A stretch of DNA of 25,490 nt, from the NCBI GenBank assembly GCA_007126465.1, contig SLBE01000046.1, positions 1 through 25,490 on the forward strand. Reading direction: 5' to 3'. The notes beneath the pieces were generated by a model, which worked only from the letters and a program-made list of their open reading frames with translations, had not been told where the DNA came from and searched no databases. Origin of the DNA: Syntrophomonadaceae bacterium (GTDB taxonomy: Bacteria > Bacillota > Dethiobacteria > DTU022). Positions within the stretch are counted from its first letter, which is position 1, and each line of letters opens with the position of its first letter. Position numbers and translations under genes: made by a program. Shown here in pieces: positions 1,256 through 23,301 of this stretch.

Positions 1256-1353
1256 TTGATATATAAGGATTGAAAAAGAATTAAAGGCCGAAGCTCAGGC
1301 GGCCTGATTTATGTCGCCGTTCGAGCTTAACGGGCTGAAGGCAGGTGACTTTA

Positions 1354-2172: not shown

Positions 2173-2243
2173 AAGAATTATATACTACTAAACCATACTC
2201 TTTTGCTTTGGCCTGCAGGCATTGATATGAAGAGGTGATTGAA

Positions 2244-2777
2244 GTGAATAGATCTGGAGACAATCTAAATCCTGCAATTTTAGCCAGGAGAGCACTTGAA
2301 TTTTACCTGAAGGAAGGTTCCCTGCCGGAAATACCCGGCAGCCTTCCGGCTGAGTACTACAGCAGGGCAGGAGTATTTGTTTCTTTAAAGAAAGATGACC
2401 AATTGCGCGGCTGTATCGGAACGGTAGAGCCGGTCCGTGACAACCTTGCCGAAGAAATTGCGTTCAACGCTGTTAGCGCTGCAGTGCGGGATCCGCGCTT
2501 TACTCCGGTAGATATAGAAGAGCTTCCTTCACTTTCTGTGACTGTGGATGTTTTAGGCCCGATGGAGCGAATCAGCAGCGAAGATGAGCTTGATCCTCAA
2601 CAGTATGGAGTGCTGGTGCGCAGTGGTTCGCGCAGCGGGTTGCTGCTGCCGAATCTTGAAGGTGTTAATACAGTAAAAGAACAGCTTGATATCGCCCGAC
2701 GTAAAGCTGGTATTATGCCCGGTCAAAAGGCGAATTTATACCGTTTTAAAGTCACCCGCTACGGGGAAGGCGATTAA
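2244..2777 (+). CDS. amrA: AmmeMemoRadiSam system protein A (AMMECR1 domain)
   Basis: GVFVSLKK..LRGCIGT, DPRF, GLLLPNL motifs of AMMECR1. ORF opens at 2235; GTG 2244 follows a GAGGTG RBS. Confidence 0.92.
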   Translation: MNRSGDNLNPAILARRALEFYLKEGSLPEIPGSLPAEYYSRAGVFVSLKKDDQLRGCIGTVEPVRDNLAEEIAFNAVSAAVRDPRFTPVDIEELPSLSVTVDVLGPMERISSEDELDPQQYGVLVRSGSRSGLLLPNLEGVNTVKEQLDIARRKAGIMPGQKANLYRFKVTRYGEGD

Positions 2778-2805
2778 GTTTAAAGATAAATAGGAGCTGG
2801 TTTAA

Positions 2806-3822
2806 GTGCATAAAGCCCTTTACTATGATAAGGAAAATAGCAAAATCCACTGCCGGCTCTGTCCCCGTAATTGCCTCTTGCAGGAAGGTCAGACCGGAAC
2901 ATGTGGAGTGCGCACTGTAGAGCAGGGCGAACTATACACTGCGAATTACGGAAAGCTGGCAGCGGCTAACTGGGATCCCGTTGAGAAAAAACCCCTTTAT
3001 CATTTTCACCCCGGCCGGCCGATTTTATCCCTGGGGACGTTTGGCTGCAATTTTCTCTGTTCCTTTTGCCAGAACTGGTCATTGGCCCGTGGTAATCCTT
3101 CACAGGCGGTTGATACAGTTGAACCGGAAGATGTTCTGGCCATGCTGGATAAAGCCGGTGGCCCCGAAAAAGTGCTTGGTGTTGCCTATACTTATAATGA
3201 ACCGGTAATCTGGTATGAGTTTGTTTTTGACACAGCCCGTCTTTTAAACGAAAAGGGGTACAGTAACGTTCTGGTTACCAATGGTTATATACAAAAGGAG
3301 CCGCTGCAGGATTTACTTCCCTATATCGATGCCATGAATATTGATGTCAAGGCATTCAGTGATCATTTTTATCGGGAATACTGCCGCGGCTCGAGGAAGC
3401 CTGTTATAGAAACAGTGGAAGCAGCAGTTAAAGAGTGCCATATTGAAATTACCTGTCTTCTCATACCGACCTTAAATGACAGAGAGGAAGAACAGGAAGC
3501 ACTGGTATCCTGGCTGGGAAGTCTTAGCCCGGACATAGTTCTGCATTACTCACGCTACTTCCCGCAGTACAAAATGGATTTACCGGCCACTCCGGTTAAG
3601 GTAATGGAAGAAGCTAAAAAGAGAGCGGAGAAGCATTTGAACTATGTTTACCTCGGAAATGTTAATCTACCTGGTTCAGCTGACACTAATTGCCCGTACT
3701 GCGGCAATCTCCTGGTAAATCGAAGTGGTTACCAGGCTGAAATAACCGGCCTGACCGGTGATTCCAGGTGTAATAACTGTGGCGGTATTATAAGTATTAT
3801 ATTACCGCAACCTTTATGTTAA
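2806..3822 (+). CDS. amrS: AmmeMemoRadiSam radical SAM enzyme
   Basis: CxxxCxxC (CNFLCSFC), N-terminal CRLCPRNC...CGVR, DPVEKKPLYHF, YTYNEP, C-terminal CPYCG and CNNCG. Confidence 0.93.
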   Translation: MHKALYYDKENSKIHCRLCPRNCLLQEGQTGTCGVRTVEQGELYTANYGKLAAANWDPVEKKPLYHFHPGRPILSLGTFGCNFLCSFCQNWSLARGNPSQAVDTVEPEDVLAMLDKAGGPEKVLGVAYTYNEPVIWYEFVFDTARLLNEKGYSNVLVTNGYIQKEPLQDLLPYIDAMNIDVKAFSDHFYREYCRGSRKPVIETVEAAVKECHIEITCLLIPTLNDREEEQEALVSWLGSLSPDIVLHYSRYFPQYKMDLPATPVKVMEEAKKRAEKHLNYVYLGNVNLPGSADTNCPYCGNLLVNRSGYQAEITGLTGDSRCNNCGGIISIILPQPLC

Positions 3823-8901: not shown

Positions 8902-8940
8902 ATACGGTATGTTTGTAACAATCAGACATGCCGTATTTGT
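8902..8940 (+). terminator. Likely intrinsic terminator after glmS
   Basis: 14-bp stem ATACGGTATGTTTG / CAGACATGCCGTAT (two G-U pairs), 7-nt loop, followed by a T-rich tract. Confidence 0.65.
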
Positions 8941-9008: not shown

Positions 9009-9081
9009 AATATAAAATTAAGTGCATTAGGTGTACATATGTGCAGGTAAAGGTAGTCATTACCAGGTGGCGGGTGATTAT

Positions 9082-9741
9082 ATGCATACCCATAAAGTTG
9101 ATACAGAGTTAGTTTGTTTCGTTTGTAATAAACTTACAATACACAATATTGAGTATGCTGATAATCGCATGAATAATATTACCTGCAGCACCTGTGGTGT
9201 AAAATATGAACTGGTTATCGAAGTTAGCATTTCTTATCATACTGAAAATATACTGAAACGCATTCTGACTAAACCTCACCGAATTTTAGATGAAACTCAC
9301 ACTGATTTAATTGAATTTATTTATTCTTTGCCACTAAGGGTAGTATCGAAGCCATATAGGCTGGTAAATGAAATTATTGTAGAACCAGGTCAATCTACTG
9401 ATGAATCTAAGAAAAATGAAACAGATATTTTTTGCAGCTACTGTTCAGAGCCCACCTCGCATAGTATTTATTATTTTGACAATAGAATGCAATATTCGGT
9501 TTGCTCTCAATGTGGCTTGAAAATAGAGTTTCTTTGTCTGGTAGTTAAGTACAAGAACTATCCTGAAGAATTAATGCACCGAATTGTAACTAAACCTGAA
9601 CGGATTTTGAAAGAGTTACACAGCCAGCGTTCCAGCTTGTTATACTCCATTCCGATAAGGGTTGTTACTAAGCCTTATCGCCTCCTCAGGGAATTTGTTG
9701 CCAGGATGAAAAATACAACCTCAAACAAAAGCAATTTCTAA
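9082..9741 (+). CDS. Hypothetical protein with two tandem CxxC...CxxC Zn-ribbon + helical repeats
   Basis: Two internal repeats, each CxxC-N19-CxxC followed by RI.TKP.RI and Y-S-[LI]-P-[LI]-R-V-V-[ST]-K-P-Y-R-L. ORF opens at GTG 9031; ATG 9082 is the more likely start. Confidence 0.75.
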   Translation: MHTHKVDTELVCFVCNKLTIHNIEYADNRMNNITCSTCGVKYELVIEVSISYHTENILKRILTKPHRILDETHTDLIEFIYSLPLRVVSKPYRLVNEIIVEPGQSTDESKKNETDIFCSYCSEPTSHSIYYFDNRMQYSVCSQCGLKIEFLCLVVKYKNYPEELMHRIVTKPERILKELHSQRSSLLYSIPIRVVTKPYRLLREFVARMKNTTSNKSNF

Positions 9742-9879: not shown

Positions 9880-9908
9880 TTGACAAAACAGGCAAGAGTA
9901 ATTATACT
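9880..9908 (+). promoter_or_regulatory. Near-consensus sigmaA promoter of the PTS/corrinoid/dehydrogenase operon
   Basis: TTGACA (9880-9885), N17, TATACT (9903-9908). Confidence 0.8.
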
Positions 9909-10062: not shown

Positions 10063-10737
10063 ATGATGTTAGCTGATTTGAGGCAGGCAGTAATAGAAAC
10101 TGCCCGTAAGATGAAAGAATACGGGTTAGTTGAGCTGGCTGGGGGAACTGTTTGTGCTGTTGATAAAGAAACCTCACTGGTTGCAATTACTCCAAGTGGA
10201 TTGGAGTATGACAATATGCAGCCGGAAGATGTTTGTCTGGTAGATTATGATTTAAGGTTAGTGGATGGCAGGCTAAAGCCTTCAATTGCTTCAGATATGT
10301 TTACAGAAATAATTAAAGCCCGCCCTGATGTCGGCGCAGTAATACATACTCACTCAAGTTATGCAACTGCATTCGCCTCGTTAAATCGAGAAATCCCTGT
10401 TATTACCACTACGCAAGCTAACCTGGTTGGAGGAACAGTACCTGTAGTAAGGCCGCTCCACCCAGGACCACATACAAAAGAATACTTAGCGAATATTGTA
10501 AAAACTCTCGGAAACGGTAAAGCTGTTAATCTAATGTGTCATGGCCCTATAGTCGTAGGTGATGATCTGGATGACTGTTTAGCTGTTGCTGTAACCATAG
10601 AAAGCACAGCAGCGATAGCAATTAGGGCTGCAGCTCTTGGCAATCCAGTCTGTTTGAACCAGGATGATACAAAGCTTGCCTATGACTATTGCCGTAGAGC
10701 TGTAGGGCAAAAAAAACATAATGAAAGGGGGGAATAA
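10063..10737 (+). CDS. Class II aldolase/adducin-family protein (FucA/AraD-like), atypical active site
   Basis: AITPSG, KPS, RPDVGAVIHTHS (metal HxH) and xHG third His. PSIA in place of PSSE/PSSD. Confidence 0.88.
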   Translation: MMLADLRQAVIETARKMKEYGLVELAGGTVCAVDKETSLVAITPSGLEYDNMQPEDVCLVDYDLRLVDGRLKPSIASDMFTEIIKARPDVGAVIHTHSSYATAFASLNREIPVITTTQANLVGGTVPVVRPLHPGPHTKEYLANIVKTLGNGKAVNLMCHGPIVVGDDLDDCLAVAVTIESTAAIAIRAAALGNPVCLNQDDTKLAYDYCRRAVGQKKHNERGE

Positions 10738-10738
10738 T

Positions 10739-11047
10739 GTGGACCAAAAGTTAATTCTTGTTGTTTGCGGGGCAGGTATTAATACCTCCACTATGGCAGG
10801 GGAATTCATATCGGACGAAATCAGTAAGCGCAAACTTAAAAACGTTAAGGTAAAAACTGTACTTGTTAATGATTTGCCTCGCTATAAAGGTCAAAAGGAT
10901 ATGGCAATTGTTTATATGACTAAGGTTGACACTGATATGGGTGTTCCATCTTTCCAGGGTATGAACTTTCTGATTGGCACGCGTGATACAAAGCTTGAGC
11001 TGTTCGATAAAATCCTTGAATCTTTGGATGTTGAGCAGCAGGGTTAA
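10739..11047 (+). CDS. PTS galactitol-family EIIB component
   Basis: ILVVCGAGINTSTM with phosphorylatable Cys and GatB-like C-terminal F..G. GTG 10739 follows a G-rich RBS (ORF opens at 10721). Confidence 0.85.
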   Translation: MDQKLILVVCGAGINTSTMAGEFISDEISKRKLKNVKVKTVLVNDLPRYKGQKDMAIVYMTKVDTDMGVPSFQGMNFLIGTRDTKLELFDKILESLDVEQQG

Positions 11048-11086: not shown

Positions 11087-12364
11087 ATGAGTGGAATTTA
11101 TTCTACAATTGTTGCTGGAGTTGATTGGTTTGTAGCCCTTGGTCCTTCCGTAATGATTGCAATTGTTCTCACAGTTCTTGGTACTGCTTTTGGGGCAGGT
11201 TTTTCAAAAAGCCTTCGTGGTGGGATTATTACCGGAGTTGGGTTAGCCGGTCTATTCCTGGTGGTTGACTTAATTGTTGCTGCCCTCTTACCAGCTATTA
11301 ACGCGATGGCTGAAAACTTTAACCTGCAGTTAAGGCTGGTTGATGTGGGCTGGGCTGATGCAGGGATTGCCTGGGGGTGGCCCGGGGTCGCCGGTGTTAT
11401 GCTGGGCATCATTGCTGTAAATATCATAATGGTCCTACTTAAATTAACAAAAACACTGTGGACAGATGTTTGGAGTTACTGGCATGGCCAGGTTTGCGGG
11501 GCATTTGTTTGGGTTGTAACCGGAAGCGTTACACTTGGCATTATCGCTGCAATAATTTACCTGGTTATCGGTAGCCTGTTTTCAGATATTACAGCAAAGC
11601 GCTACCAGGAGTATAATGATATGCCAGGGATTGGAGTGCCCTGCGGCCCTACTGTGCTGGCCAGTGTTTTTGCCATCCCGGTTAGCGCAGCCCTCAATAA
11701 AATTCCTGGAATTAACAAGTTAAACGCTTCACCTGAATCAATCAAGGAAAGGTTCGGGGTTTTCGGGGAAGTATCAGTTATGGGTGCAATAATTGGCCTT
11801 ATTATTGGATTACTTGCAGGCTATGGTGTCGCCGGTGCTTTGGTCCTGTCTATGCAGGTTGCTGCTATCATGCTTATTTTGCCCCGGATGGTCTCAATTA
11901 TTGCGGAAGGTTTAATACCGATCACTATGAAAGTTGCCGAATTCGTGCGTGAACGTTTTAAAGATCGCGAACTGCATGTTGGGGTTGACTGTGCTGTGTT
12001 GTTGGGGCATTCTTCGGTGATGGCTTCAGCTTTAATTCTTTTCCCCCTATCTATTCTGCTGGCTGCAGCACTACCCGGTAATGGAATGCTGCCCATAGCA
12101 AGTCTTGCGCTTATTCCATTTCTGGCTGGAGCGGTTGTACCTTTTACCAGGGGAAATGTTATTCACACCGTGATTATTGTCCTGCTGCTTCTTATTCCTT
12201 ACCTGTATGCAGCTACTAACATGTCTCCTGTTCACACTGAAACCTATGCTCAACTTGGAATGTTTACTGAGGAAATTGAAGGTGGAGCGAGGTTTGCCAG
12301 CTGGGACATGGGTGGAGATCCAATTAGCTGGATAATTAACCAGATCTTCAGGCTTTTTAGCTAA
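11087..12364 (+). CDS. PTS galactitol-family EIIC permease (GatC-like)
   Basis: 425 aa polytopic protein with LGPSVM, DVGW..AGIAWG, TKTLWTDVWSYWH, MLILPRMVSIIAEGLIP and LHVGVDCAVLLGH motifs similar to GatC. Confidence 0.9.
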   Translation: MSGIYSTIVAGVDWFVALGPSVMIAIVLTVLGTAFGAGFSKSLRGGIITGVGLAGLFLVVDLIVAALLPAINAMAENFNLQLRLVDVGWADAGIAWGWPGVAGVMLGIIAVNIIMVLLKLTKTLWTDVWSYWHGQVCGAFVWVVTGSVTLGIIAAIIYLVIGSLFSDITAKRYQEYNDMPGIGVPCGPTVLASVFAIPVSAALNKIPGINKLNASPESIKERFGVFGEVSVMGAIIGLIIGLLAGYGVAGALVLSMQVAAIMLILPRMVSIIAEGLIPITMKVAEFVRERFKDRELHVGVDCAVLLGHSSVMASALILFPLSILLAAALPGNGMLPIASLALIPFLAGAVVPFTRGNVIHTVIIVLLLLIPYLYAATNMSPVHTETYAQLGMFTEEIEGGARFASWDMGGDPISWIINQIFRLFS

Positions 12365-12428: not shown

Positions 12429-12902
12429 TTGGTGAAGGATAAGGTGAAATATTTTAACGAAGACTTAATTATGACAGGCCTTCCAGCTGAAAGCAGTGAT
12501 GAAGTGATCAACAGCTTAGTAGGCAAAATGGCAGACAAAGGGTATGTTACCCCTGATTATGCTTTGGAAGTAACCGAAAGGGAAAAAAAACACCCAACCG
12601 GCCTTCCAACCCAGGAGGTTAAAGTAGCAATTCCACATGCCGGTGCAGATAACGTTATAAAGCCTGGTGTTGCTTTAGCCGTCCTAAAAAAACCGGTAGT
12701 ATTTTGCAACATGGAAAACCCTGACCAGGATTTGGATGTCAGTATTGTATTTTTACTGGCCAATAAAGATAGCGGGGATCAATTGAAAGATTTGCAGTCG
12801 CTGACAGGTCTTTTTGCTGATCCATCAATTCTTCAGCGTGTTGTTAAATCCGGCAGTGCAAAAGAAATTGCCGAATTACTTAACCAAAGATTATCTAACT
12901 AG
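12429..12902 (+). CDS. PTS EIIA component (mannitol/fructose-type EIIA_2 fold, GatA-like)
   Basis: REKKHPTGLP..VAIPH (phospho-His), F.NMENP, VFLLA. Exact start uncertain. Confidence 0.9.
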   Translation: MVKDKVKYFNEDLIMTGLPAESSDEVINSLVGKMADKGYVTPDYALEVTEREKKHPTGLPTQEVKVAIPHAGADNVIKPGVALAVLKKPVVFCNMENPDQDLDVSIVFLLANKDSGDQLKDLQSLTGLFADPSILQRVVKSGSAKEIAELLNQRLSN

Positions 12903-12919: not shown

Positions 12920-14059
12920 GTGTTAACCCCAAGAGAAAGAGTTTTAACAGCTCTTAAACACGAGGAACCTGATCGGGTTCCACTCGGGCTAGGGGCAAGT
13001 GGAGCCAGTGTTACAGATGATGTATACTTTAAATTGAAAGATTACTTTGGTATCGAGGGCGATGTTGAACCATTTCGTTCCGGCCATGGAGATAACATAT
13101 ATGACCCAAGGGTTTTTGATTGTTTAGGGGTGGACTTCAGGCATGTTTTTTTAAGATCTTCTTTAGACTTTAAGCCTCCTGTAAACGAGGATGGAAGCCT
13201 TGTTAATGAATGGGGCGTTGCTGTAAAAAAATATGGCCGTTTCTATGAGTGGGTTAGTCACCCTCTAGCAGAAGCAGATTTATCTGATCTTGATAATTAC
13301 AAGTGGCCTAAGCCATATACGGGGCAACGTCAACGTGGCTTGCAGGATACTGTTCAGGAATACTATCAAAAGAGCGATTTTGCTATAGCTTCTAGGTCAC
13401 CATCTCGAGGTTTTTTTGACCTGGGTATCCAGTTAAGGGGATTTGAGCGCTTTATGACCGATATGGTTCTTGACAAAAAATTCACTCATAAATTTATGGG
13501 TAAATTACTGGAAACTATTATCGGGTTTTATGATGTGCTCTTAGAACAAGCCGGCCCATATATACATATTGTTGAAACCCAGGATGATTACGGGCATCAA
13601 AACTCGCTGTTTTTCTCGCCGGCATTATTCCGTGAAATGATTAAGCCATACCGGGCAGAACTAAATGCTTTTATAAAGAAAAAAGCACCGCAAGCTTCAA
13701 TTTTTATTCACACATGTGGCGCTGTTAGTGAGCTAATCGAGGATTTAATTGATTGTGGTGTTGATGTTGTTAATCCTGTGCAGCCATTGGCTAAAGGTAT
13801 GGAAACGAAAAAACTAAAAGAAAGATTTGGCGGAAAAATTGTGTTTCATGGTGGGATTGATTTACAGAAAGCCCTGGCCGGATCAAAAGAAGATGTTGAG
13901 ATAGAAGTTAAAACCAGGCTTCGAGACCTGGCACCCGGCGGAGGTTATATTCTTTCCCCTGCCAATGTTGTTCAAGATGACGTGCCAGTTGAGAATATAG
14001 TCCTGTTGTTTGACCTGGCCAGGAAGTATGGTCAATACCCTATAGATATACCTGAATAA
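12920..14059 (+). CDS. Uroporphyrinogen-decarboxylase-fold protein, probable corrinoid-dependent methyltransferase (MtaA/CmuA-like)
   Basis: TPRERVLTAL.HEEPDRVP, DDYG.Q..LFFSP..FREMIKPY, HTCG (HxC), GGIDLQ, GGGYILSPAN. Lacks the HemE RQAGRY motif. A corrinoid protein gene is nearby. Confidence 0.8.
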   Translation: MLTPRERVLTALKHEEPDRVPLGLGASGASVTDDVYFKLKDYFGIEGDVEPFRSGHGDNIYDPRVFDCLGVDFRHVFLRSSLDFKPPVNEDGSLVNEWGVAVKKYGRFYEWVSHPLAEADLSDLDNYKWPKPYTGQRQRGLQDTVQEYYQKSDFAIASRSPSRGFFDLGIQLRGFERFMTDMVLDKKFTHKFMGKLLETIIGFYDVLLEQAGPYIHIVETQDDYGHQNSLFFSPALFREMIKPYRAELNAFIKKKAPQASIFIHTCGAVSELIEDLIDCGVDVVNPVQPLAKGMETKKLKERFGGKIVFHGGIDLQKALAGSKEDVEIEVKTRLRDLAPGGGYILSPANVVQDDVPVENIVLLFDLARKYGQYPIDIPE

Positions 14060-14356
14060 GGGGTGTAATTATGAAAAGGGTAACTGTGGCCGGAGGTTCA
14101 TGCGGCTGCTCCAGCCTGCGGCGTGCATCAGAAAAAATTGATCAATATTGTCGGTATAAAGGTATTGAAGTCAAAGTTTCTGTGCATAACTTATGGCAGT
14201 CTGTACACTTAGATCCCAGGGCGGACCTGGTCATACAAATGGTTCCGTTCTTTGAAGGGTTAAGTTGCCCTGTCTTAGATGGCCGTCCCTTTATTAAAGG
14301 CGACGGCGAAGACAACCTGTTACATGAGGTTGCTAAGTTGCTGGCATGAAATACCT
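13981..14356 (+). repeat. Tandem duplication, copy 1 (3' end of URO-D-fold gene + EIIB-like gene)
   Basis: Sequence from cgtgccagttgagaatatag... recurs 403 nt downstream. Confidence 0.95.
14071..14349 (+). CDS. GatB-like PTS EIIB paralog 1 with displaced Cys
   Basis: MKRVTVAGGSCGCSS...CPVLDGRPFIKGDGE aligns to the GatB fold (MKRKIIVACGG...PLVHGMPFISGIG), but has Gly at the catalytic Cys position. Confidence 0.7.
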   Translation: MKRVTVAGGSCGCSSLRRASEKIDQYCRYKGIEVKVSVHNLWQSVHLDPRADLVIQMVPFFEGLSCPVLDGRPFIKGDGEDNLLHEVAKLLA

Positions 14357-14383
14357 TGCAAGTTTAAATTAGTAACCGAACTG

Positions 14384-14756
14384 CGTGCCAGTTGAGAATA
14401 TAGTCCTGTTGTTTGATTTGGCCAGGAAGTATGGTCAATACCCTATAGATATACCTGAATAAGGGGTGTAATTATGAAAAGGGTAATTGTAGCCGGAGGT
14501 TCATGCGGTTCCAGCATGCAGCGTGCATCAGAAAGAATTGATCAATATTGTCAATATAAAGGTATTGAAGTCAAAGTTTCTGTGCATAACTTATGGCATT
14601 CTGTGCACTTAGATTCCAGGGCGGATCTGGTCATACAAATGTTTCCGTTCTTTGAAGAGTTAAACTGCCCCGTTTTAGATGGTCGCCCCTTTATTAAAGG
14701 CGACGGCGAAGAAGATCTGTTGCATGAAGTTGCTGAATTGCTGGCATAAAGTACCT
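14384..14756 (+). repeat. Tandem duplication, copy 2
   Basis: Hand alignment gives about 90% nt identity to 13981-14356, with one 3-nt deletion. Includes the last 25 codons plus stop of the URO-D-fold gene. Confidence 0.95.
14474..14749 (+). CDS. GatB-like PTS EIIB paralog 2 with displaced Cys
   Basis: Paralog of 14071-14349 (13 substitutions + 1 indel by hand count). N-terminus MKRVIVAGGSCGSS. Confidence 0.7.
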   Translation: MKRVIVAGGSCGSSMQRASERIDQYCQYKGIEVKVSVHNLWHSVHLDSRADLVIQMFPFFEELNCPVLDGRPFIKGDGEEDLLHEVAELLA

Positions 14757-14803
14757 ATGATTTGCTTTAACAAACGATGTAATTATATGTGAGGTGTTTA
14801 GAA

Positions 14804-15439
14804 ATGAAACTACTGTCTGAAATTGGCGATAAAATGATAGAAGGTAATGTTGAAGAGCTGATAGACCTGATTAATAAAGCAGAAGCTGAAGGAATTGATC
14901 AAAAGACGATTATTAATGATGGTTTAATTGCTGCCATGCTAAGCCTTGGTGAAAAATTCAAACTCAATGAAGTGTTTATACCTGATGTACTGGTTGCAGC
15001 GGCAGCAATGAAAGAAGCGATTAATCATTTAGGTTTCGATAATATTTCTGATACAGGTTCACCAAAAGGAGTAATTGTAATTGGAACGGTTCGGCATGAC
15101 ATGCATGATATTGGGAAAAACCTGGTTGCTTTACTTATGAACAGCAATGGTTTTCATGTTCATGATCTCGGTGTAGACGTGTCACCGGACAAATTCGTGG
15201 AAGCGGTAAAAGATTACAGTCCTGATATCCTGGCCCTCTCTGCTCTTTTAACAACAACACTGCCTGAAATGAGTGAGGTAATAAAAGCTTTGGGTAATGC
15301 AGGAGTTAGAAAATCTACACGGGTTTTGGTTGGCGGTGCGCCGGTAACTGAAGAATATGCCGATTCGATCGGTGCAGATGGTTATGCGCCTGATGCAACC
15401 TCTGCAGTAACTAAATCTTTAGAGATGATTGATAGCTAA
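14804..15439 (+). CDS. Corrinoid (cobalamin-binding) methyltransferase protein, MtaC/MttC-like
   Basis: N-terminal cap domain (GLIAAM..LGEKF...EVFIPDVL), DxHxxG motif DMHDIGKNLV, SALLTTT, GGAP, IGADGYAPDA. ATG 14804 follows GAGGTG. Confidence 0.93.
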   Translation: MKLLSEIGDKMIEGNVEELIDLINKAEAEGIDQKTIINDGLIAAMLSLGEKFKLNEVFIPDVLVAAAAMKEAINHLGFDNISDTGSPKGVIVIGTVRHDMHDIGKNLVALLMNSNGFHVHDLGVDVSPDKFVEAVKDYSPDILALSALLTTTLPEMSEVIKALGNAGVRKSTRVLVGGAPVTEEYADSIGADGYAPDATSAVTKSLEMIDS

Positions 15440-15498: not shown

Positions 15499-16464
15499 AT
15501 GGTTACAAGAAAGCATAACCAGAGATTGTTATCGAAAATTGCTCACATGTATTATGAGCAAGGCTTAAGCCAGCAAATGATTGCAGAAAAATTGAGGACA
15601 TCAAGGCCAACTATAAGCAGAATGCTAGATCAAGCTCGTAAAATGGGCATAGTTAAAATATCTATCCAATCATTTAATGATCGAATAGCTAGTCTTGAAA
15701 GTGAATTAGAAAGCAAATTTTCTCTTAACGAAGTAGCTGTTATTGCAAATGATTCTATGAATAAAGCAGATCAGAAAAAGGCGCTTGGGGCAGTTGCTGC
15801 AGATATATTACAGCGAATTGTTAAAGGATCTGATGTTGTTGGGATTTCATGGGGAACAAGTTTGCGAGAAGTTATTAACGGACTTAAGCCAACACATATT
15901 CCCGGGTTAATAGCAGTTCCACTGGTTGGTGGAATGGGTCAGGATATACGCTATGAGATTCATTCAAACAGCCTTGTAGTAGATTTTTCCAGAAAACTTG
16001 GTTGTCACAGCTGGGTTTTACATGCACCGGCTATTGTTGAGAGAGAAAATTTGAAAGATGCCATCCTGGGCGAGTCTGAAAGTGGAGAAATTATGGAGCA
16101 GGCAAAAAAGGCTAATATTGGCATGGTGGGATTAGGAGCACTTAATGAATCCTCAACTATGATTCAAACCGGGTTCTTCTCTATCGATGATTTTAAAGAA
16201 ATCAGGGAAAAAGGCGCAATCGGCGAAGTCTGCTCATTTTTCTTTGATCGTAATGGTCAAGCTTGTGATATTGATATCAATAAGAGGGTTATCGGGGTAG
16301 GCCCTTATGATTTGAAAAATATTGAAACAGTCATTGCAGTTGTAGCCGGTGACAAAAAGGAAGAGGCTCTTCATGCGGCTCTAAGAGGCCAGTTTATAAA
16401 TATTTTGATTACAGATGAATTGACAGCTGAAAAGGTGCTTTTAATTGAAAGTGCTACCAGGTAG
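15499..16464 (+). CDS. SorC/DeoR-family sugar-phosphate-binding transcriptional regulator
   Basis: N-terminal HTH (IAHMYYEQGLSQQMIAEKLRTSRPTISRML..AR..GIVKI), GISWGTSL, VPLVGG, IGMVGLG and LITDE motifs. Confidence 0.93.
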   Translation: MVTRKHNQRLLSKIAHMYYEQGLSQQMIAEKLRTSRPTISRMLDQARKMGIVKISIQSFNDRIASLESELESKFSLNEVAVIANDSMNKADQKKALGAVAADILQRIVKGSDVVGISWGTSLREVINGLKPTHIPGLIAVPLVGGMGQDIRYEIHSNSLVVDFSRKLGCHSWVLHAPAIVERENLKDAILGESESGEIMEQAKKANIGMVGLGALNESSTMIQTGFFSIDDFKEIREKGAIGEVCSFFFDRNGQACDIDINKRVIGVGPYDLKNIETVIAVVAGDKKEEALHAALRGQFINILITDELTAEKVLLIESATR

Positions 16465-16520: not shown

Positions 16521-17483
16521 ATGAAGCTATCGAAAAAATTAAAGCTAAGAATGTTAGAGCAAATGCTGCTAACTCGCTATTTTGAAGAAAAAGTTGATGA
16601 GCTTTTTGCCAAGGGATTGATCCATGGAACCACTCATCTTTCAATCGGAGAAGAAGCGATGGCGGCAGGACCGGTAAACGCCTTAAAAGCAGATGACTTT
16701 ATGGCCATTACTCACCGTGGGCACGGTTCCTGTATAGCTAAGGGTGCTGATATTAATATCATGATGGCTGAGTTAATGGGCAAAGAAACAGGTTATTGTA
16801 AAGGTAAAGGCGGTTCCATTCATGTTGCTAACCTGGAAGAAGGTAATCTTGGGGCAAACGGTATAGTGGGTGGTGGAATCCCTATTGCTACTGGAGCCGC
16901 ACTTGCACAGAAAATGCAAAACACCGGTAAAATTGTCCTTTGCTTTTTTGGTGATGGTGCATCTAATGAAGGAACATTTCATGAATCACTAAATATGGCC
17001 TCTATCTGGCAGTTGCCTATTGTTTACGTTTGCGTTAATAACATGTATGGGATGTCTACGTGCATTGACGATGTTTGCCCTACAAATAACATTTCTGATC
17101 GTGCATCTGCTTACCAGATGGAAGGTATTACAATCGATGGTAACGATGTTCTTGAGATGTTTGAGGTTACGAATAATGCTGTTATAAAAGCACGTAAGGG
17201 TCAGGGGCCTACGTTGATTGAAGGCTTAACTTACAGGTGGAAAGGTCATTCGAAAAGTGATGCTAACTTGTATCGGACCAGGGAAGAGATAGAAGAGTGG
17301 AAAAAGAAATGCCCAATCAAGCGCTTCCAGACCTATTTAATCGAACAAAAAATCATGTCTGAGGAAGAGATTAAAAAAATGGAAGAATCATCCCTTGAAA
17401 CAATTGAGAGGGCTGTGGAGTTTGCTGAGCAAAGTCCTTATCCCAGCTTAGATGCACTGGAAGAAGACCTCTATGCTTATTAA
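16521..17483 (+). CDS. TPP-dependent 2-oxoacid/acetoin dehydrogenase-like E1 alpha subunit
   Basis: THRGHG, GKGGSIH, TPP-binding GDGASNEG...NN, YRWKGHSKSD. Substrate not determinable from sequence. Confidence 0.92.
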   Translation: MKLSKKLKLRMLEQMLLTRYFEEKVDELFAKGLIHGTTHLSIGEEAMAAGPVNALKADDFMAITHRGHGSCIAKGADINIMMAELMGKETGYCKGKGGSIHVANLEEGNLGANGIVGGGIPIATGAALAQKMQNTGKIVLCFFGDGASNEGTFHESLNMASIWQLPIVYVCVNNMYGMSTCIDDVCPTNNISDRASAYQMEGITIDGNDVLEMFEVTNNAVIKARKGQGPTLIEGLTYRWKGHSKSDANLYRTREEIEEWKKKCPIKRFQTYLIEQKIMSEEEIKKMEESSLETIERAVEFAEQSPYPSLDALEEDLYAY

Positions 17484-17525
17484 TTGGAGTATTTAATATC
17501 TACCATAGACGGAGAGTGATGTTAC

Positions 17526-18506
17526 ATGGAAGAGATAACCTATGGCCAGGCGGTTCGTGATGCTATGAGGGAAGAACTGCAGCGTGATGAAAATGTTTTT
17601 TTGATGGGTGAAGATATAGGGGTCTACGGAGGAGCTTTCGGCATTACCTTTGGTATGATTGATGAGTTTGGACCTGACCGTGTTAGAGATACACCTATAT
17701 CCGAGGCAGCTATAGTAGGAGCTGGTGTCGGGGCAGCGATGGTTGGTATGCGCCCTATCGTTGAGATTATGTTTAGCGACTTCCTTACCCTGGCCAGTGA
17801 TCAAATTATGAATCAAGCTGCAAAAATCCATTATATGCTTGGTGGCAAAGCTAAGGTGCCCCTGGTTGTAAGAACACCAGGTGGTTCCGGAACAGGTGCA
17901 GCTGCTCAGCATTCTCAAAGCCTTGAAGCACTATTTGCCCATATACCGGGCCTTAAAGTAGTTATGCCATCTAGCCCATATGATGTTAAAGGTCTTTTGA
18001 AGACAGCAATTCGTGACGACAACCCTGTTGTTTTTTTTGAACACAAACTATTGTATTCAAAAAAAGGAGAGGTTCCGGATACAGACTATACTGTTCCCTT
18101 CGGCGAAGCAGAGATAAAACGGTCTGGATCAGATATCACAGTTTTTGCAACATCAATCATGGTACACAGGGCTCTCGAAGCAGCGGAGCAGCTGGCAAAT
18201 GAAAATATTAGTGTCGAAGTAATAGATCCAAAAACACTTGTGCCACTGGATACTGAAACCATTGTTAAATCGGTTATAAAGACCGGCCGCCTGATGATTG
18301 TTCAGGAAGCCTGTAAAAGAGGCGGATTTGCCTCTGAAGTTGTAGCAGAGGTTGTTGAAAGTGAAGCTTTTGGTTATTTAGATGCACCGATTACAAGGGT
18401 CGCCGGTAAAAATATTCCCATACCATATTCAAAAAAACTAGAAGCGGCAGCTGTTCCACAGGTAGAAGATATAGTTAAAGCAGTAAAAGAAGAGCTCTTA
18501 CAGTAG
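17526..18506 (+). CDS. TPP-dependent dehydrogenase E1 beta subunit
   Basis: [50 protein letters not shown]. Confidence 0.93.
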
Positions 18507-18518
18507 GGAGGCAGTTTG

Positions 18519-19817
18519 ATGGCAGTTGAAATACTGATGCCCAAGATGGGCATGACAATGGAAGAAGGAACAATTCTTAAGTGGGTTAAACAAATTGGCG
18601 ATGAAATTGTCAAAGGGGAAGTTGTCCTCGAGATTCAGACTGATAAGGTAAAAATGGATGTAGAGGCACCAGCTGATGGAGTGTTATTAAAAATTGTCGC
18701 AGCTGAAGGTTCCGTGGTACCGGTTAATACCCCTATTGCATATATAGGAGAAGCAGGAGAAACTGTAGCTGAAGAAGAGCAACCTGCCAGTGTAGCTGAT
18801 AGCTCATCAGCAGAAACTGCAGAAGAAGTAAAAACTCATGGCCCTGTTAAAGCAACTTCCAGCGTTGATAGTGAAAAATGTAAAGCAACGCCTGCAGCAA
18901 AAAGGATGGCTGCAGAAAAAGGAATTGATTTGCAAAATATAACTCCTGGATCGACTGATGGAATGATTAGGGTAAAAGATCTGGACGCGGTTAAAGCCAC
19001 CCCACTGGCCCAGAAGATTGCTCATGATCAGGGTATAGATCTCAGTGCTGTTAAAGGTAGTGGTGTTCATGGAAAAATCACCAAAGAAGATCTTCTTTCA
19101 GATTCTGCCATAAGAAGTAGTGATGATGAACAAAGCAGTGTAACGCCGCTGGCTGGTTTACGCAAAGTAATTGCTGAACGAATGAGTCTTTCATGGCATG
19201 AAGCTCCTCATGCATTTATCAGCCTTGAGGTGGATATGACTGCAATGGCAAATCTAAGGTCAGAAATACTAAAAGATCTGGAGGAAAAGACCGGGAACAA
19301 AGTTTCATATAACCACCTGTTAATCAAGGTAGTCGCTCGAGCATTAAGAGATAACCCGGCAGTGAATGCCAGGTTCATTGATAATGGAATAGATTTTTCT
19401 GAAGATGTAAATATTGGTGTTGCTGTTGCTGCAGAGGAAGGCTTAATTGTGCCTGTACTGCATAAAGCGGACAAATTAAACATAGAAGAGGTTGTTCTTA
19501 ATACTAATGAACTAATTGAGAAGGCTCGCAATGGTGAACTTGTATTAAAAGAGTTGGAAGGCGGGACTTTTACAATCAGTAATCTTGGTATGTTCGGTAT
19601 TACCATGTTTGGACCGATTTTGAATCCCCCGGAAGTGGGGATCCTCGGTGCAGGGAAAATAATTGACAGTCCGGTAGTGGAAAATGGAAATGTCGTGGTT
19701 AAGCCGATAATGACTTTGTCTTTATCATTTGATCACCGGGCCCTGGATGGAGCACAGGCGTCCCTCTTTTTATCGCGTGTCAGGGATTTAATGGAATCAC
19801 CGGCGAAGTTACTATAA
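18519..19817 (+). CDS. Dihydrolipoamide acyltransferase E2 (one lipoyl domain, two peripheral-subunit-binding domains)
   Basis: Lipoyl motif EIQTDKV, two ATP.A.+.A...GIDL repeats, GGTFTISNLG, catalytic DHRALDG. Confidence 0.93.
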   Translation: MAVEILMPKMGMTMEEGTILKWVKQIGDEIVKGEVVLEIQTDKVKMDVEAPADGVLLKIVAAEGSVVPVNTPIAYIGEAGETVAEEEQPASVADSSSAETAEEVKTHGPVKATSSVDSEKCKATPAAKRMAAEKGIDLQNITPGSTDGMIRVKDLDAVKATPLAQKIAHDQGIDLSAVKGSGVHGKITKEDLLSDSAIRSSDDEQSSVTPLAGLRKVIAERMSLSWHEAPHAFISLEVDMTAMANLRSEILKDLEEKTGNKVSYNHLLIKVVARALRDNPAVNARFIDNGIDFSEDVNIGVAVAAEEGLIVPVLHKADKLNIEEVVLNTNELIEKARNGELVLKELEGGTFTISNLGMFGITMFGPILNPPEVGILGAGKIIDSPVVENGNVVVKPIMTLSLSFDHRALDGAQASLFLSRVRDLMESPAKLL

Positions 19818-19860
19818 AAGAGTAATGGAAATACACAGAGCAATGGAGGACACAGATCAG

Positions 19861-21246
19861 ATGGATTATGATATTTTGGTACTGGGCGGCGGAATAGGTG
19901 GCTATGTTGCTGCAATCAGGGCTGCGAAAGGTGGGGCGAAAGTTGCCCTGGTAGAAAAAAACCATATTGGTGGAACCTGTCTTAATTATGGCTGCATTCC
20001 AACCAAGTCCCTGATACGCAGTGCAGAAGTACTAGATACAGTAAAAAATGCAAGTGATTTTGGTGTAAAAGCTACCGGGGCAGAGCTAGACCTGGAATCG
20101 GTAATTAAACGTAAAGACAATATTGTAAAAATGTTGACTGAAGGTGTTGAAGGCCTGTTAAATGCCAACCAGATTACCATTTATAACAGCATGGGTAATG
20201 TTAAGGATGCCAGGACAGTTGAAGTAAAAGATAGCAGCGGAAAGAGCTTAGACCTTACTACTAATAAATTAATTATTGCAACAGGTTCAGTAACAACAAT
20301 TCCGAATATTCCTGGCGTGGATTTGCCAGGTGTTATAACCAGCAAGGAAGTGTTGAATATAACAGATCTGCCTGAAGAGGTTTGTATCGTTGGCGGAGGA
20401 GTAATAGGATTAGAGTTTGCTTACATACTAAATGCTTTCGGGGCAAAGGTTACCGTTTTGGAATTATTGCCCGAAATATTACCTAAAGCTGAACGTGAGC
20501 TGGTCAATTATTTGCTGGATTCTTTTCGGGAAAAAGGCATTAGCATTCTTACCAAGGCCCAGGTTAATGCTATTGAAGAGAGTGAACCCGGTATGAATGT
20601 TATGTTTTACCACAACGATGAAGAAAAAACGCTTCAGTCCGGTTTAGTTTTAATGGCGGTGGGCCGTGAACCCAACCTTGCAGGTCTGGATGCTCTTAAT
20701 TTAAAAAGAAATTCAAGTAAGGGGATAATCGTAAATAGCTCCATGGAAACTTCCTTGCCTGGAGTTTATGCTATCGGAGATGTAACAGGTGGTGTCCAAC
20801 TGGCACATGTTGCAACTGCTCAGGGTATAGTAGCTGCAGAAAATGCTCTTGGTGAAGAAGCGAAATTTAATAGCAACAGCATCCCTTATTGCATTTATAG
20901 CAAACCTGAAATGGCCTGGGTAGGCTTAACGGAAGAAGAAGCAAAAGAAAAGTATGGCCGGATAAAAGTAGGCCGGTTTCCTTTTACCGGTAGTGGTAAG
21001 GCCATGGTTTATGGTGATACCTCCGGCCTGGTTAAGATGATTATAGATGAGAAATATGGTGAAATTGTCGGTCTACATCTAATTGGGCCCGAAGCGACCA
21101 ATATGATTGCCGAAGGTGTTTTGGCCAGAATGTTGGAAGCAACAGTGATTGAGCTGGCAGCTACGATTCATCCCCATCCAACGTTGTCTGAAGTTTTAAT
21201 GGAAGCTGCTCATATGACGCTTGACCAGGGCATTCATTATATTTAG
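19861..21246 (+). CDS. lpdA: Dihydrolipoyl dehydrogenase E3
   Basis: GGGIGG FAD site, redox disulfide GGTCLNYGCIPTK, GGGVIG NAD site, HPHPTLSE. ATG 19861 follows GGAGG (ORF opens at 19825). Confidence 0.95.
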   Translation: MDYDILVLGGGIGGYVAAIRAAKGGAKVALVEKNHIGGTCLNYGCIPTKSLIRSAEVLDTVKNASDFGVKATGAELDLESVIKRKDNIVKMLTEGVEGLLNANQITIYNSMGNVKDARTVEVKDSSGKSLDLTTNKLIIATGSVTTIPNIPGVDLPGVITSKEVLNITDLPEEVCIVGGGVIGLEFAYILNAFGAKVTVLELLPEILPKAERELVNYLLDSFREKGISILTKAQVNAIEESEPGMNVMFYHNDEEKTLQSGLVLMAVGREPNLAGLDALNLKRNSSKGIIVNSSMETSLPGVYAIGDVTGGVQLAHVATAQGIVAAENALGEEAKFNSNSIPYCIYSKPEMAWVGLTEEEAKEKYGRIKVGRFPFTGSGKAMVYGDTSGLVKMIIDEKYGEIVGLHLIGPEATNMIAEGVLARMLEATVIELAATIHPHPTLSEVLMEAAHMTLDQGIHYI

Positions 21247-21289: not shown

Positions 21290-21574
21290 ATGCAACAAAA
21301 TTCTGTAGAAGTACTTATTACGAATAAATCTGGGCTTCACGCAAGGCCCGCATCTCTTTTTGTACAGGAAGCAAATAAGTATAAATCCGAAATTGAGATA
21401 AATTGCAAAGACAAAACAGTTAATGCAAAAAGTATACTTAGTATACTTGGCTTGGGTGCCAATAAAGGAAGCACAATCGTTATTAGTGCTGAAGGTGAAG
21501 ATGCAGGAGTTGCTTTAAGTGGCCTAAAAGAATTTTTGGAAAAAGAATTACCCAGGGTGGATGGTGCGGAATGA
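21290..21574 (+). CDS. ptsH: Phosphocarrier protein HPr
   Basis: GLHARPA (His15) and NAKSILSIL (Ser46) motifs. Confidence 0.93.
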   Translation: MQQNSVEVLITNKSGLHARPASLFVQEANKYKSEIEINCKDKTVNAKSILSILGLGANKGSTIVISAEGEDAGVALSGLKEFLEKELPRVDGAE

Positions 21575-23301
21575 TTACTCTTAATGGAATTGGTGCATCG
21601 CCGGGGATAGTTGTTGGCAAAGCAGCTTTGATCAGGGATAGGGAAATCGAGCTGACACATGAGAAAATTATGCCAGAGGAGACAGCTCAGGAAATTGAGC
21701 GCTTCGATGCTGCCATTACAAAAGCTAAAGAGGAGATAAAGGTAATTAGGGATCAAGCTGAGCAGAATATTGGCAGTGAAGAAGCAGCTGTCTTTACTGC
21801 ACACTTGATGATATTAGATGATCCTGAATTGGTGCAGGGTGTTGTATCAAAAATCAAGAATGAGCTGATCAGTGCGGAAAATGCTGTTAATGAGGTTGTT
21901 AAAAATTATATAGAAATGCTGTCAGCTTTAGATGATGAATATATAAAAGCCAGGGTTGCCGACATCGAAGATATCGGTCAGCGTTTGCTATTGTTGCTTA
22001 CTGGTACCGAGAAAACTAACGTTGAATTAGACAAAGAAACAATCTTAATAGCGAAAGATCTGAGTCCATCAGACACTGCACAATTAAACGCTGATTTAAT
22101 CCTTGCTTTTGCAACGCAGTCCGGTTCACGTTCTTCCCATACAGCTATTCTTGCCCGATGCCTTGGAATTCCTGCCGCGGTAGGTCTTGGAGAAAAGCTA
22201 TTGGAGGTAGTGACTGAGGGTGACATAATTATTGTTGATGGCAATGATGGAGTTGTCATAGTAGATCCTGACCAAACGGTGCTTAAAGATTACCAAAGAA
22301 AAATTGAGATGGAAGAAAAAGAAAAGTTGCGTCTTACGGAATATAAGCATAAGTCAGCGACTACTGCAGATGGGCTGAGAATAAAAATAATGGGAAATAT
22401 TGGTGCAGTTAATGAAGCAGATGCTGTTTTGAAAAATGGAGGAGAAGGTTCAGGGCTATTTCGGACAGAGTTTCTTTACATGGAAAATGAAGAATCTCTA
22501 CCTTCGGAAGAACAACAGTACCTGTCATATAAAGCGGTGGCTGAGAAGATGAATGGTAAAGAAGTGGTAATTCGCACACTTGATATTGGTGGTGATAAAG
22601 AGCTTGCATCACTCAATCTGGCATGTGAAGAAAACCCTTTTCTTGGTTACAGAGCTATAAGAATATGTTTAGACCGGGAAGATATTTTTAAGCCTCAACT
22701 TAGGGCTATTTTAAGAGCGAGTGTTTTTGGTGATTTAAAAGTAATGTTTCCTATGATCGCAGGCCTTGAGGAATTAAGAAAGGCCCTGTATTTCTTGAAT
22801 GAAGCCAAGCAAGAATTGAAAAATGAAGAAATTCCATTCAAACATGATATTGAAGTTGGGATTATGATCGAGGTGCCTTCTGCTGCTTTAATGGCAGACA
22901 CACTGGCTAAAGAGGTTGACTTTTTTAGTATTGGCACCAATGATCTCGTTCAGTATACACTGGCTGCAGATCGAAATAATGAGAAAGTGTCAGCAGCATA
23001 TAACCATTATCATCCCGCTGTTTTAAAGCTGATAAAAATTGTTGCAGATGCTGCTCATAATAATGGTATATGGGTGGGGATGTGCGGTGAAGCATCCGGA
23101 GATGAGCTTTTGCTGCCACTTTGGGTTAGCTTTCGTTTTGATGAATTGAGTATGAGTTCTGTTTCTATCCTTAAAGCAAAAGAAATTATTAGCTTATGGA
23201 GTGCTAAAGAAGCAGAACTGCTATCAGAAAAAGTATTAACTGCAGATACAGCTACCGAAGTTAAACAGCTTTTAGCATCAGCTTCAAAAGATAACTCATA
23301 A
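21571..23301 (+). CDS. ptsI: PTS Enzyme I (PEP-protein phosphotransferase)
   Basis: GIGASPG, SHTAILAR (phospho-His), GLFRTEFLY, RTLDIGGDK, ENPFLGYRAIR, FSIGTNDL, GMCGE. Confidence 0.96.
   Translation: MITLNGIGASPGIVVGKAALIRDREIELTHEKIMPEETAQEIERFDAAITKAKEEIKVIRDQAEQNIGSEEAAVFTAHLMILDDPELVQGVVSKIKNELISAENAVNEVVKNYIEMLSALDDEYIKARVADIEDIGQRLLLLLTGTEKTNVELDKETILIAKDLSPSDTAQLNADLILAFATQSGSRSSHTAILARCLGIPAAVGLGEKLLEVVTEGDIIIVDGNDGVVIVDPDQTVLKDYQRKIEMEEKEKLRLTEYKHKSATTADGLRIKIMGNIGAVNEADAVLKNGGEGSGLFRTEFLYMENEESLPSEEQQYLSYKAVAEKMNGKEVVIRTLDIGGDKELASLNLACEENPFLGYRAIRICLDREDIFKPQLRAILRASVFGDLKVMFPMIAGLEELRKALYFLNEAKQELKNEEIPFKHDIEVGIMIEVPSAALMADTLAKEVDFFSIGTNDLVQYTLAADRNNEKVSAAYNHYHPAVLKLIKIVADAAHNNGIWVGMCGEASGDELLLPLWVSFRFDELSMSSVSILKAKEIISLWSAKEAELLSEKVLTADTATEVKQLLASASKDNS

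Follow-up and report, generated by a model that had tools for sequence, protein, structure and literature searches.

A uroporphyrinogen decarboxylase-fold protein and a corrinoid protein encoded in a sugar phosphotransferase operon: candidate components of a sugar-phosphate demethylase

The 25,490-nt contig SLBE01000046.1 of a Syntrophomonadaceae bacterium (assembly GCA_007126465.1), analysed here over its whole length and referred to as the window, belongs to a 1.78-Mb genome bin of 260 contigs that is 79% complete. In this window (contig C165), a protein of the uroporphyrinogen decarboxylase (URO-D) fold and a stand-alone corrinoid protein are encoded close together in an operon of the sugar phosphotransferase system (PTS). 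Every gene from 10063 through 23301 lies on the + strand. The best promoter candidate upstream of the operon, put forward by consensus match alone, is a TTGACA-17-TATACT site at 9880..9908 (+ strand; 11 of 12 consensus positions), which is preceded by a terminator-like hairpin downstream of glmS (8902-8936). From the promoter-like site to 16700, where the scan ended, the + strand has a single terminator-like site, a weak 6-pair stem at 11184-11198 within the IIC gene. The first gene encodes a class II aldolase/epimerase-family protein that is AraD/FucA-like (10063..10737; PF00596, 145.9 bits) and scores under all equivalog cut-offs, the top NCBIfam model being NF005123 (150 against a cut-off of 251). 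It is followed by genes for a PTS EIIB of the canonical Gat/Lac type (10721..11047; PF02302, 25.7 bits), whose VCGAGINTS loop is identical in six orthologues, an EIIC of the galactitol family (11087..12364; PF03611, 226 bits; TIGR00827, 371 against 542) and a type 2 EIIA (12429..12902; PF00359, 101.6 bits). Next come the URO-D gene (12920..14059), two small genes (14071..14349 and 14474..14749), the corrinoid gene (14804..15439) and a gene for a SorC/DeoR(Bacillus)-type sugar-phosphate-sensing regulator (15499..16464; PF04198, 239.7 bits; NF053881, 257 against 420). A preliminary description of this DNA had presented the URO-D-fold and corrinoid proteins as a two-gene module; the module has to be extended to four genes, as the two small ones lie in between.

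The URO-D open reading frame (ORF) begins with GTG, has GGAG 4-7 nt upstream and encodes 379 aa. Its match to PF01208 (92.2 bits against a gathering cut-off of 23.9) covers residues 166-370 only. The N-terminal 165 residues fall outside the Pfam URO-D model and hold the invariant residues R53, D62, D72 and R74. More than 3300 homologues of ~380 aa were found, the named ones being labelled uroporphyrinogen decarboxylase (family) proteins, and metagenomic relatives are 97% and 84% identical. These homologues, together with an AlphaFold2 model with a predicted local distance difference test score (pLDDT) of 95, indicate that the gene is real. The top PDB match of the model is the methyltransferase MtaA (4ay7/4ay8; template modelling (TM) score 0.65-0.75, 20% identity). 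By proximity MtaA comes first, then uroporphyrinogen decarboxylase (UROD) and then MetE, with MtaA and UROD both matched at a probability of 1.00. The protein had been described as neither HemE nor MtaA-type, and both statements hold. No HemE model is among its NCBIfam matches at E <= 0.01, and UROD structures match the family profile at just E 1.8e-4, with 14-18% identity. The MtaA and CmuA models are all under cut-off (TIGR01463, 44.7 against 235.4; NF040654, 44.4 against 400; NF004889, 55.9 against 244). We therefore place the protein in an uncharacterised, sugar-locus subfamily as a candidate MT1, that is, a methyltransferase that passes a methyl group from substrate to corrinoid. A search for longer homologues gave a 708-aa form and an enolase::URO-D fusion; in one protein, P0122 of 861 aa, URO-D is annotated alongside enolase N- and C-terminal domains.

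To compare the zinc site, a profile of 30 family members was aligned to MtaA (PDB 4ay7). The protein has the motifs HTCG (264-267) and LSPAN (345-349). In the alignment, 'lhtCGav' falls on MtaA 'LHICGNV', placing His264 and Cys266 on His240 and Cys242, and 'ilapan' falls on 'LAPGCG', placing Asn349 on the zinc ligand Cys319. The distal Cys of the MtaA-type site (His-x-Cys plus Cys) is thus missing, as had been noticed from the motifs themselves. Gln288 probably matches the position of MtaA Glu263, giving the site signature H264/C266/Q288/N349. We then counted these residues in 77 subfamily members from 79 genome loci. Position 264 is His in 77/77, position 266 is Cys in 49 and Asp in 28, position 288 is Gln in 55 and Glu in 22, and position 349 is Asn in 72, Ser in 4 and His in 1; Asp223, Asn359 and Arg74 are invariant or almost so. 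The site that had seemed atypical, and peculiar to one gene, is therefore the norm of a subfamily with more than 3300 homologues. MtaA and MetE have zinc-thiolate sites; the ligand set predicted from these residues is harder. Zinc is itself dispensable in some MT1 enzymes of the UroD superfamily: CdmB and MtvB do not need it, and the Moorella enzyme is active without it (PMC13222342).

The corrinoid protein has both expected domains, a cap (PF02607, 58.6 bits) and a Rossmann domain (PF02310, 95.6 bits), and an intact DxHxxG motif, reported previously and found here as DMHDIG, which spans residues 99-104 in the 211-aa form. This form starts at the likely start codon, ATG 14804 behind GAGG, in preference to GTG 14789. 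Curated models score under their cut-offs (NF047996 MtgC-like, 212.1 against 370; TIGR02370, 180.4 against 215.3), so that the protein has the domain pair yet fits no named equivalog. It is 48-50% identical to corrinoid proteins adjoining URO-D genes of the subfamily in other phyla and 45-48% identical to corrinoid proteins of other systems; similarity among corrinoid proteins is therefore not discriminating. In the orthologous operon of a Lachnospiraceae bin, the corrinoid gene (L013:12574-13215) is split by one in-frame stop, which could be a pseudogene mutation, a sequencing error or recoding.

The two genes between the URO-D and corrinoid genes encode divergent GatB-fold proteins of 92 and 91 aa. 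They are 86% identical and lie in a tandem duplication of two ~403-nt copies (13981..14788), for which Tandem Repeats Finder gave a period of 400, 1.9 copies and 91% matches, and pairwise alignment gave 354/410 identical positions. The duplication also copied the final 75 nt of the URO-D gene and the ribosome-binding site. Since the copies have diverged, an assembly artefact is unlikely. Neither copy matches PF02302 or any other Pfam model; copy 2 matches the GatB model NF007643 at E 3e-4 (21.2 bits against a cut-off of 95) and copy 1 does not match it. The assignment of both comes from the fold and an alignment of the loop. The AlphaFold2 model of the family has a pLDDT of 95 and its nearest PDB structures are GatB 5gqs (TM 0.75), then 1iib and 1tvm, while hhalign of the family against canonical IIB gives a probability of 12.5%. 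In the first loop, Cys11-Gly12 is invariant and GGSCG aligns with the VCGAG phospho-Cys loop of canonical IIB, so that the loop Cys is retained. A search of 1.84 billion representatives gave 9 clusters of the family at E <= 1e-10, so it is rare.

Eight related operons have a single IIB-fold gene followed by a gene for a NifS-like cysteine desulfurase, with the stop and start codons overlapping or abutting. The desulfurase of these relatives is intact, its pyridoxal phosphate-binding Lys and catalytic Cys being kept. One metagenomic relative, whose URO-D protein is 84% identical, has this arrangement (L104:4471-5890), so that loss of the desulfurase gene and doubling of the small gene have occurred in the lineage of the window; no remnant of a desulfurase gene was found at the corresponding place in the window (13981-14788). 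Further coupled pairs are at L011:7067-8502, L012:10784-12215, L052:5462-6886, L056:7219-8638, L058:6406-7844 and L064:13550-14972, all within PTS operons and drawn from two URO-D clades. The pair might serve as a sulfur relay, as a second phosphocarrier or in regulation. The majority of URO-D subfamily members lack both the NifS-like and the IIB-fold genes.

We next examined the gene context of the subfamily. The order aldolase-IIB-IIC-IIA-URO-D-small IIB is kept in five other loci (L011, L012 of Clostridium sediminicola, L013, L103 and L104), in all of which the class II aldolase/epimerase-like gene retains its position. The nearest named orthologous operons were found in Bacillota: at 63-64% identity, the operon is present in a Clostridiales bin, in C. 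sediminicola and in a Lachnospiraceae bin, and a sigma-54/LevR-type activator is usually encoded ahead of it. Five loci, L052, L055, L056, L058 and L064 (Oscillospiraceae, Synergistaceae and Clostridiaceae), form a second PTS-linked clade on the tree, which shares the PTS, the small IIB-fold and the NifS-like genes. In L052, L056 and L058, the neighbours of the URO-D gene include those for HPr and Enzyme I. In the two loci of this clade that were scanned for them, L052 (7933-9996) and L058 (7897-9977), genes for a class II bisphosphate aldolase, a divergent TIM-family protein and a UPF0047 protein precede the URO-D gene, hinting at a hexose or hexitol bisphosphate intermediate.

Beyond the PTS operons, an FGGY kinase gene lies <7 kb from the subfamily gene in 28/79 loci and directly adjoins it (<200 nt) in 21. 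Ribose-type ABC transporters are encoded in 26/79 loci and GFO/IDH/MocA oxidoreductases in 19, and further neighbours are Zn-ADH, SDR, ROK, DeoR, PfkB and SIS_2 genes. The FGGY kinases are all XylB-like but under cut-off, and therefore give no substrate. An Anaerolineae locus (L098:1001-2980) encodes a 659-aa fusion of a subfamily URO-D domain with a PfkB carbohydrate kinase. PTS operons, kinase and transporter neighbours and this fusion together make a strong tie to sugar phosphorylation, and the link between the pair and PTS-borne sugar phosphates that was drawn from the single locus is thereby extended: the PTS operon recurs in two clades, and most other members lie beside an FGGY or PfkB kinase gene. 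In the PTS operons, we infer that the substrate is already phosphorylated when it meets the URO-D enzyme. Carriers of the subfamily include Anaerolineae, Spirochaetota, Lachnospiraceae, Planctomycetota and Acidobacteriota. Up to 14 URO-D matches were listed per genome in a search at E <= 1e-25 with 16 candidates scored per genome, a loose threshold that admits distant URO-D paralogues.

To determine if the subfamily works with corrinoid proteins, we searched the 79 loci for corrinoid genes. One lies <10 kb from the subfamily gene in 9/79 loci, often directly adjoining it, and these nine span at least seven separate lineages and all four metal-site signatures; an extra corrinoid/URO-D adjacency, met with by chance, is at L112. 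Five genomes with corrinoid-free subfamily loci all have stand-alone corrinoid proteins elsewhere (5/5). The reductive activator RACo was present in 100/100 subfamily-positive genomes sampled. By group, it was found in 81/81 subfamily-positive against 16/40 other genomes in the class Anaerolineae, in 13/13 against 17/28 among relatives of the source genome, and in 6/6 against 53/145 in Lachnospirales. Because the genomes are interrelated and the thresholds of the Anaerolineae and source-relative searches were loose enough to let in other URO-D paralogues, these counts are suggestive and no statistical proof. In the ESM Atlas, a 95-member cluster of modelled 543-aa proteins appears to join URO-D to a B12-binding domain, with a TM of 0.93 to the URO-D-fold protein, as compared with 0.65-0.75 for MtaA. 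Long open frames in Anaerolineae, examined in a hunt for such fusions, were rejected as read-through upstream of normal genes, and B12-binding frames of ~500-560 aa at L106 and L107 were rejected for having no similarity to the URO-D protein.

Neither a methyltransferase that takes the methyl group onward (MT2) nor an activator had been noticed in the window, and this was borne out. All ORFs of >=80 aa in the window were scanned, save those lying under a larger co-located gene, and none encodes a pterin-binding, MttB or RACo protein; tblastn of the window with the genome's own MT2 and RACo gave no match. Both are encoded elsewhere in the genome bin. C173:3812-4606 encodes a 264-aa pterin-binding MT2 with similarity to CdhD, directly before an MttB-superfamily (MTTB) gene, and C241 encodes a full 612-aa RACo with ferredoxin (Fer2), linker, middle and ASKHA domains. 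Supply of MT2 and activator in trans, suggested in the preliminary description, is thus feasible. The wider check proposed there, for MT2, activator and Wood-Ljungdahl genes, was borne out in part: MT2, RACo and formate-tetrahydrofolate ligase (FTHFS) are present, whereas acetyl-CoA synthase and methylenetetrahydrofolate reductase (MTHFR) were not found by the genome search of the 79% complete bin. The MT2 and MttB-superfamily methyltransferase cluster as a whole spans C173:3812-6066 and is one of three further corrinoid systems in the genome. In the other two, URO-D genes lie near corrinoid genes: C160:679-2362 encodes a corrinoid protein and a 359-aa URO-D protein, followed by a DUF1638-GGDEF protein, and C194:7015-10491 encodes a corrinoid protein and a 412-aa URO-D protein together with a GntR regulator and one more corrinoid protein.

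Known systems of this kind are found in the UroD superfamily, which holds the MT1 O-demethylases MtvB, OdmB, VdmB and MtoB as well as the MT1 enzymes of halomethane dehalogenases and is rich in uncharacterised clades (PMC13222342; PMC10418091). As in the role put forward here, these enzymes are proposed to transfer a methyl group to a separate corrinoid protein, do not always need zinc, and may have their MT2 and activator encoded elsewhere in the genome. They differ in acting on aryl methyl ethers or halomethanes, whereas the context here is carbohydrate, with no adjoining MT2 and with the gene inside a PTS operon; CdmB matches the subfamily profile only marginally (E 0.003). MtaA and MtbA (4ay7, 4ay8; TIGR01463) share with the URO-D-fold protein the TIM-barrel fold, a His-x-Cys at the same place and a DxHxxG corrinoid protein encoded nearby. 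They serve methanogenesis, whereas here the gene stands in a bacterial sugar operon; identity is 20%, Asn replaces Cys319 and probably Gln288 replaces Glu263. Transfer runs from corrinoid to thiol in MtaA/MtbA, in contrast to the likely direction here, from substrate to corrinoid. The methanol:corrinoid methyltransferase MtaB uses a metal ion to activate an aliphatic C-O bond, so that Co(I) can take the methyl group. The likeness to MtaB is a mechanistic analogy alone, as its fold family and ligand set (Glu, Cys, Cys) are unrelated and similarity in sequence is not expected. The galactitol system (GatABC, GatY/Z/D) resembles the operon in its Gat-family EIIA, EIIB and EIIC, and a class II bisphosphate aldolase also occurs in the second PTS-linked clade. 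All Gat equivalog models are under cut-off here, and the URO-D-fold enzyme, the IIB-fold protein and the corrinoid protein, like the NifS-like gene of the relatives, have no counterpart in the Gat pathway. A literature search found no paper on corrinoid-dependent carbohydrate demethylation or on URO-D genes within PTS operons.

Collectively, these results suggest that the URO-D-fold and corrinoid proteins are the MT1 and methyl-carrier half of a demethylase for a PTS-phosphorylated methylated sugar or polyol, with MT2 and activator supplied in trans, a reading to which we give a probability of about 50%. It draws on a UroD-superfamily candidate MT1 encoded near a corrinoid protein with cap and DxHxxG motif, with two small genes between, and on an MT2 and a RACo in the same genome. 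In the sequence of events that we infer, the methylated sugar or polyol would be imported via EIIC, EIIB and EIIA and phosphorylated. The sugar phosphate would be bound by the URO-D-fold enzyme, whose His264/Cys266/Gln288/Asn349 site, probably with a divalent metal, would polarise the methyl ether oxygen, and the methyl group would move to Co(I) of the corrinoid protein. The pterin-binding MT2 of contig C173 would then pass the methyl group to tetrahydrofolate (THF), and the RACo of contig C241 would repair oxidised Co(II). The freed sugar phosphate would go to the class II aldolase/epimerase-like enzyme and perhaps to a dehydrogenase complex encoded downstream. Methyl transfer, substrate, metal binding and the order of steps are all predictions in this scheme. 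More generally, and with less assurance, we tentatively suggest that a dedicated branch of the UroD superfamily in anaerobes strips methyl ethers from carbohydrates and passes the methyl group to a corrinoid protein. In the present operon it would be coupled to PTS uptake, with a methylated sugar or polyol phosphate as substrate and a His/Cys(Asp)/Gln(Glu)/Asn site activating the aliphatic C-O bond.

Several points weigh against demethylation. No corrinoid gene lies <10 kb from the subfamily gene in 70/79 loci, among them the C. sediminicola operon and each of the five that make up the second PTS clade, and genes of characterised MT1 enzymes usually adjoin that of their corrinoid protein. With no corrinoid gene close by in most relatives, the case for corrinoid dependence is indirect. 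Part of that case, the co-occurrence with RACo, could reflect lifestyle or genome size, the related genomes being non-independent samples. The URO-D and B12-binding fusion of the ESM Atlas is a lead only, unconfirmed by sequence; the hunt through Anaerolineae genomes yielded no such fusion, and the search for longer homologues of the URO-D-fold protein also gave none with B12. Amides (Gln, Asn) occupy two of the four positions of the MtaA zinc ligands and Asp266 is found in 28/77 members, so that a thiolate-rich zinc site is not conserved. The aryl ethers cleaved by known O-demethylases are far better leaving groups than alkyl methyl ethers. Neither acetyl-CoA synthase nor MTHFR was found in the incomplete bin, which leaves methyl-THF without a clear fate.

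Some of these points favour an enzyme that needs no corrinoid. The subfamily would then act on a sugar or sugar phosphate, for example through an isomerisation, elimination or decarboxylation that depends on a metal and takes place in the TIM barrel, and the corrinoid gene would be an unrelated or accessory neighbour. Besides the 70 corrinoid-free loci, the His, Cys/Asp, Gln/Glu and Asn set is nearer to the hard-metal site of a sugar enzyme than to a zinc-thiolate site, the coupling to sugar kinases is close and in one case a fusion, and the 165 N-terminal residues with their invariant Arg and Asp positions lie outside the Pfam URO-D model. We nevertheless consider this explanation, the main rival, rather unlikely, because corrinoid neighbours recur in at least seven lineages and in all signature classes, RACo accompanies the subfamily in every positive genome, and the closest solved structure is that of the corrinoid-dependent MtaA; the unconfirmed Atlas fusion cluster points the same way.

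A different direction of transfer has also to be weighed, in which the URO-D-fold protein would be an MT2 and, as in MtaA, pass a methyl group from the corrinoid protein to an acceptor that is a thiol or persulfide. This acceptor could sit on the Cys-loop IIB-fold protein and be fed by the NifS-like desulfurase of the relatives, akin to the methyl-sulfur metabolism proposed for mlp clusters. Kountz and Balskus tied SCMT homologues to methyl-sulfur and methyl-selenide metabolism (PMC10418091), and the retained His-x-Cys, the nearness to MtaA and the translational coupling of the IIB-fold gene to an intact desulfurase gene in eight relatives would fit. In the present operon, however, there is no MT1 candidate to load the corrinoid, the thiol-activating third Cys of MtaA is Asn, Cys266 is Asp in more than a third of the members, and the MtaA and CmuA models all score far under their cut-offs. 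With no NifS gene in the window, and neither a NifS nor an IIB-fold gene beside most family members, we regard thiol methylation as improbable.

Rather than carrying methyl groups, the corrinoid protein might sense or store B12 as an accessory, or sense light or cofactor to modulate the operon. Its domain pair is common to CarH-type sensors (NF052513, E 1e-6) and its gene adjoins that of the SorC regulator. It has no DNA-binding domain, however, scores far better with MtgC (212 bits) and MtbC (186 bits) than with CarH (28 bits), and is 48-50% identical to corrinoid proteins adjoining subfamily URO-D genes in other phyla, making a sensor very improbable. That the URO-D gene is a true uroporphyrinogen decarboxylase HemE, as its PF01208 match and the Foldseek ranks of UROD structures (3rd to 24th) might suggest, is effectively refuted by the HemE model missing from its NCBIfam matches, the low identity to UROD structures, a PTS operon without haem genes, and the many listed matches per genome in relatives, which are incompatible with a single housekeeping function.

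Hemicellulose, pectin, algal galactans and bacterial glycans commonly contain methylated sugars such as 4-O-methyl-glucuronate, 2-O-methyl-fucose, 2-O-methyl-xylose and 6-O-methyl-galactose. To our knowledge, the sole route for demethylation of such sugars is by oxygen-dependent P450 enzymes. If the demethylase reading is correct, the operon would represent the first route to deal with O-methyl sugars of plant, algal or microbial glycans without oxygen, yielding methyl-THF from carbohydrate, and would fill a gap in the anaerobic carbon cycle, as the subfamily is very widespread in anaerobic glycan degraders. Carbohydrates would join the substrates of corrinoid methyltransferases, and glycan breakdown would be tied to one-carbon metabolism and B12 demand. 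Orthologous operons are present in the cultured strains C. sediminicola SH18-2 and Faecalicatena fissicatena KCTC 15010, making the idea directly testable. C. sediminicola (L090:7035-10231) and F. fissicatena (L092:5691-11267) also have clusters encoding a 451-454-aa URO-D protein, a corrinoid protein and a CobW-type metallochaperone, with a RACo-like gene in that of F. fissicatena. These URO-D proteins retain the classical Cys ligands and belong to a UroD branch separate from the sugar-locus family.

Downstream of the SorC gene, the window encodes E1alpha, E1beta, E2 and E3 of a 2-oxoacid/acetoin-dehydrogenase-type complex (16521..21246, by Pfam assignments) and the general PTS proteins HPr (PF00381) and Enzyme I (PF02896, PF05524, PF00391) at 21290..23301. 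The complex is possibly part of the pathway and may act on its product instead of being a housekeeping pyruvate dehydrogenase. Acetoin/2-oxoacid-dehydrogenase-type E1/E2(/E3) sets were also seen near URO-D-subfamily genes of Bacillota, Chloroflexota and Planctomycetota, the coordinates outside the window being L012:15803-19100, L039:2607-3862, L057:3053-4953 and L063:11149-14234. Ahead of its SorC gene, the C. sediminicola locus with the E1/E2 set also has a lipoate-protein ligase gene. The stretch that separates glmS from the operon promoter in the window has 34% G+C and holds a 236-aa ORF (9031-9741) with no family match; its final 67 residues are unchanged in the metagenomic relative L103, and tblastn indicates an internal repeat. 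At the other end of the window, LigB/Memo-like, AMMECR1 and radical SAM genes lie consecutively at 1345-3822, a trio that we take to be the AmmeMemoRadiSam system. They are followed, in the cdaA-cdaR-glmM-glmS order typical of Bacillota, by cdaA, ybbR-like, phosphoglucosamine-mutase-like (Pfam PGM_PMM domains only) and glmS-like genes.

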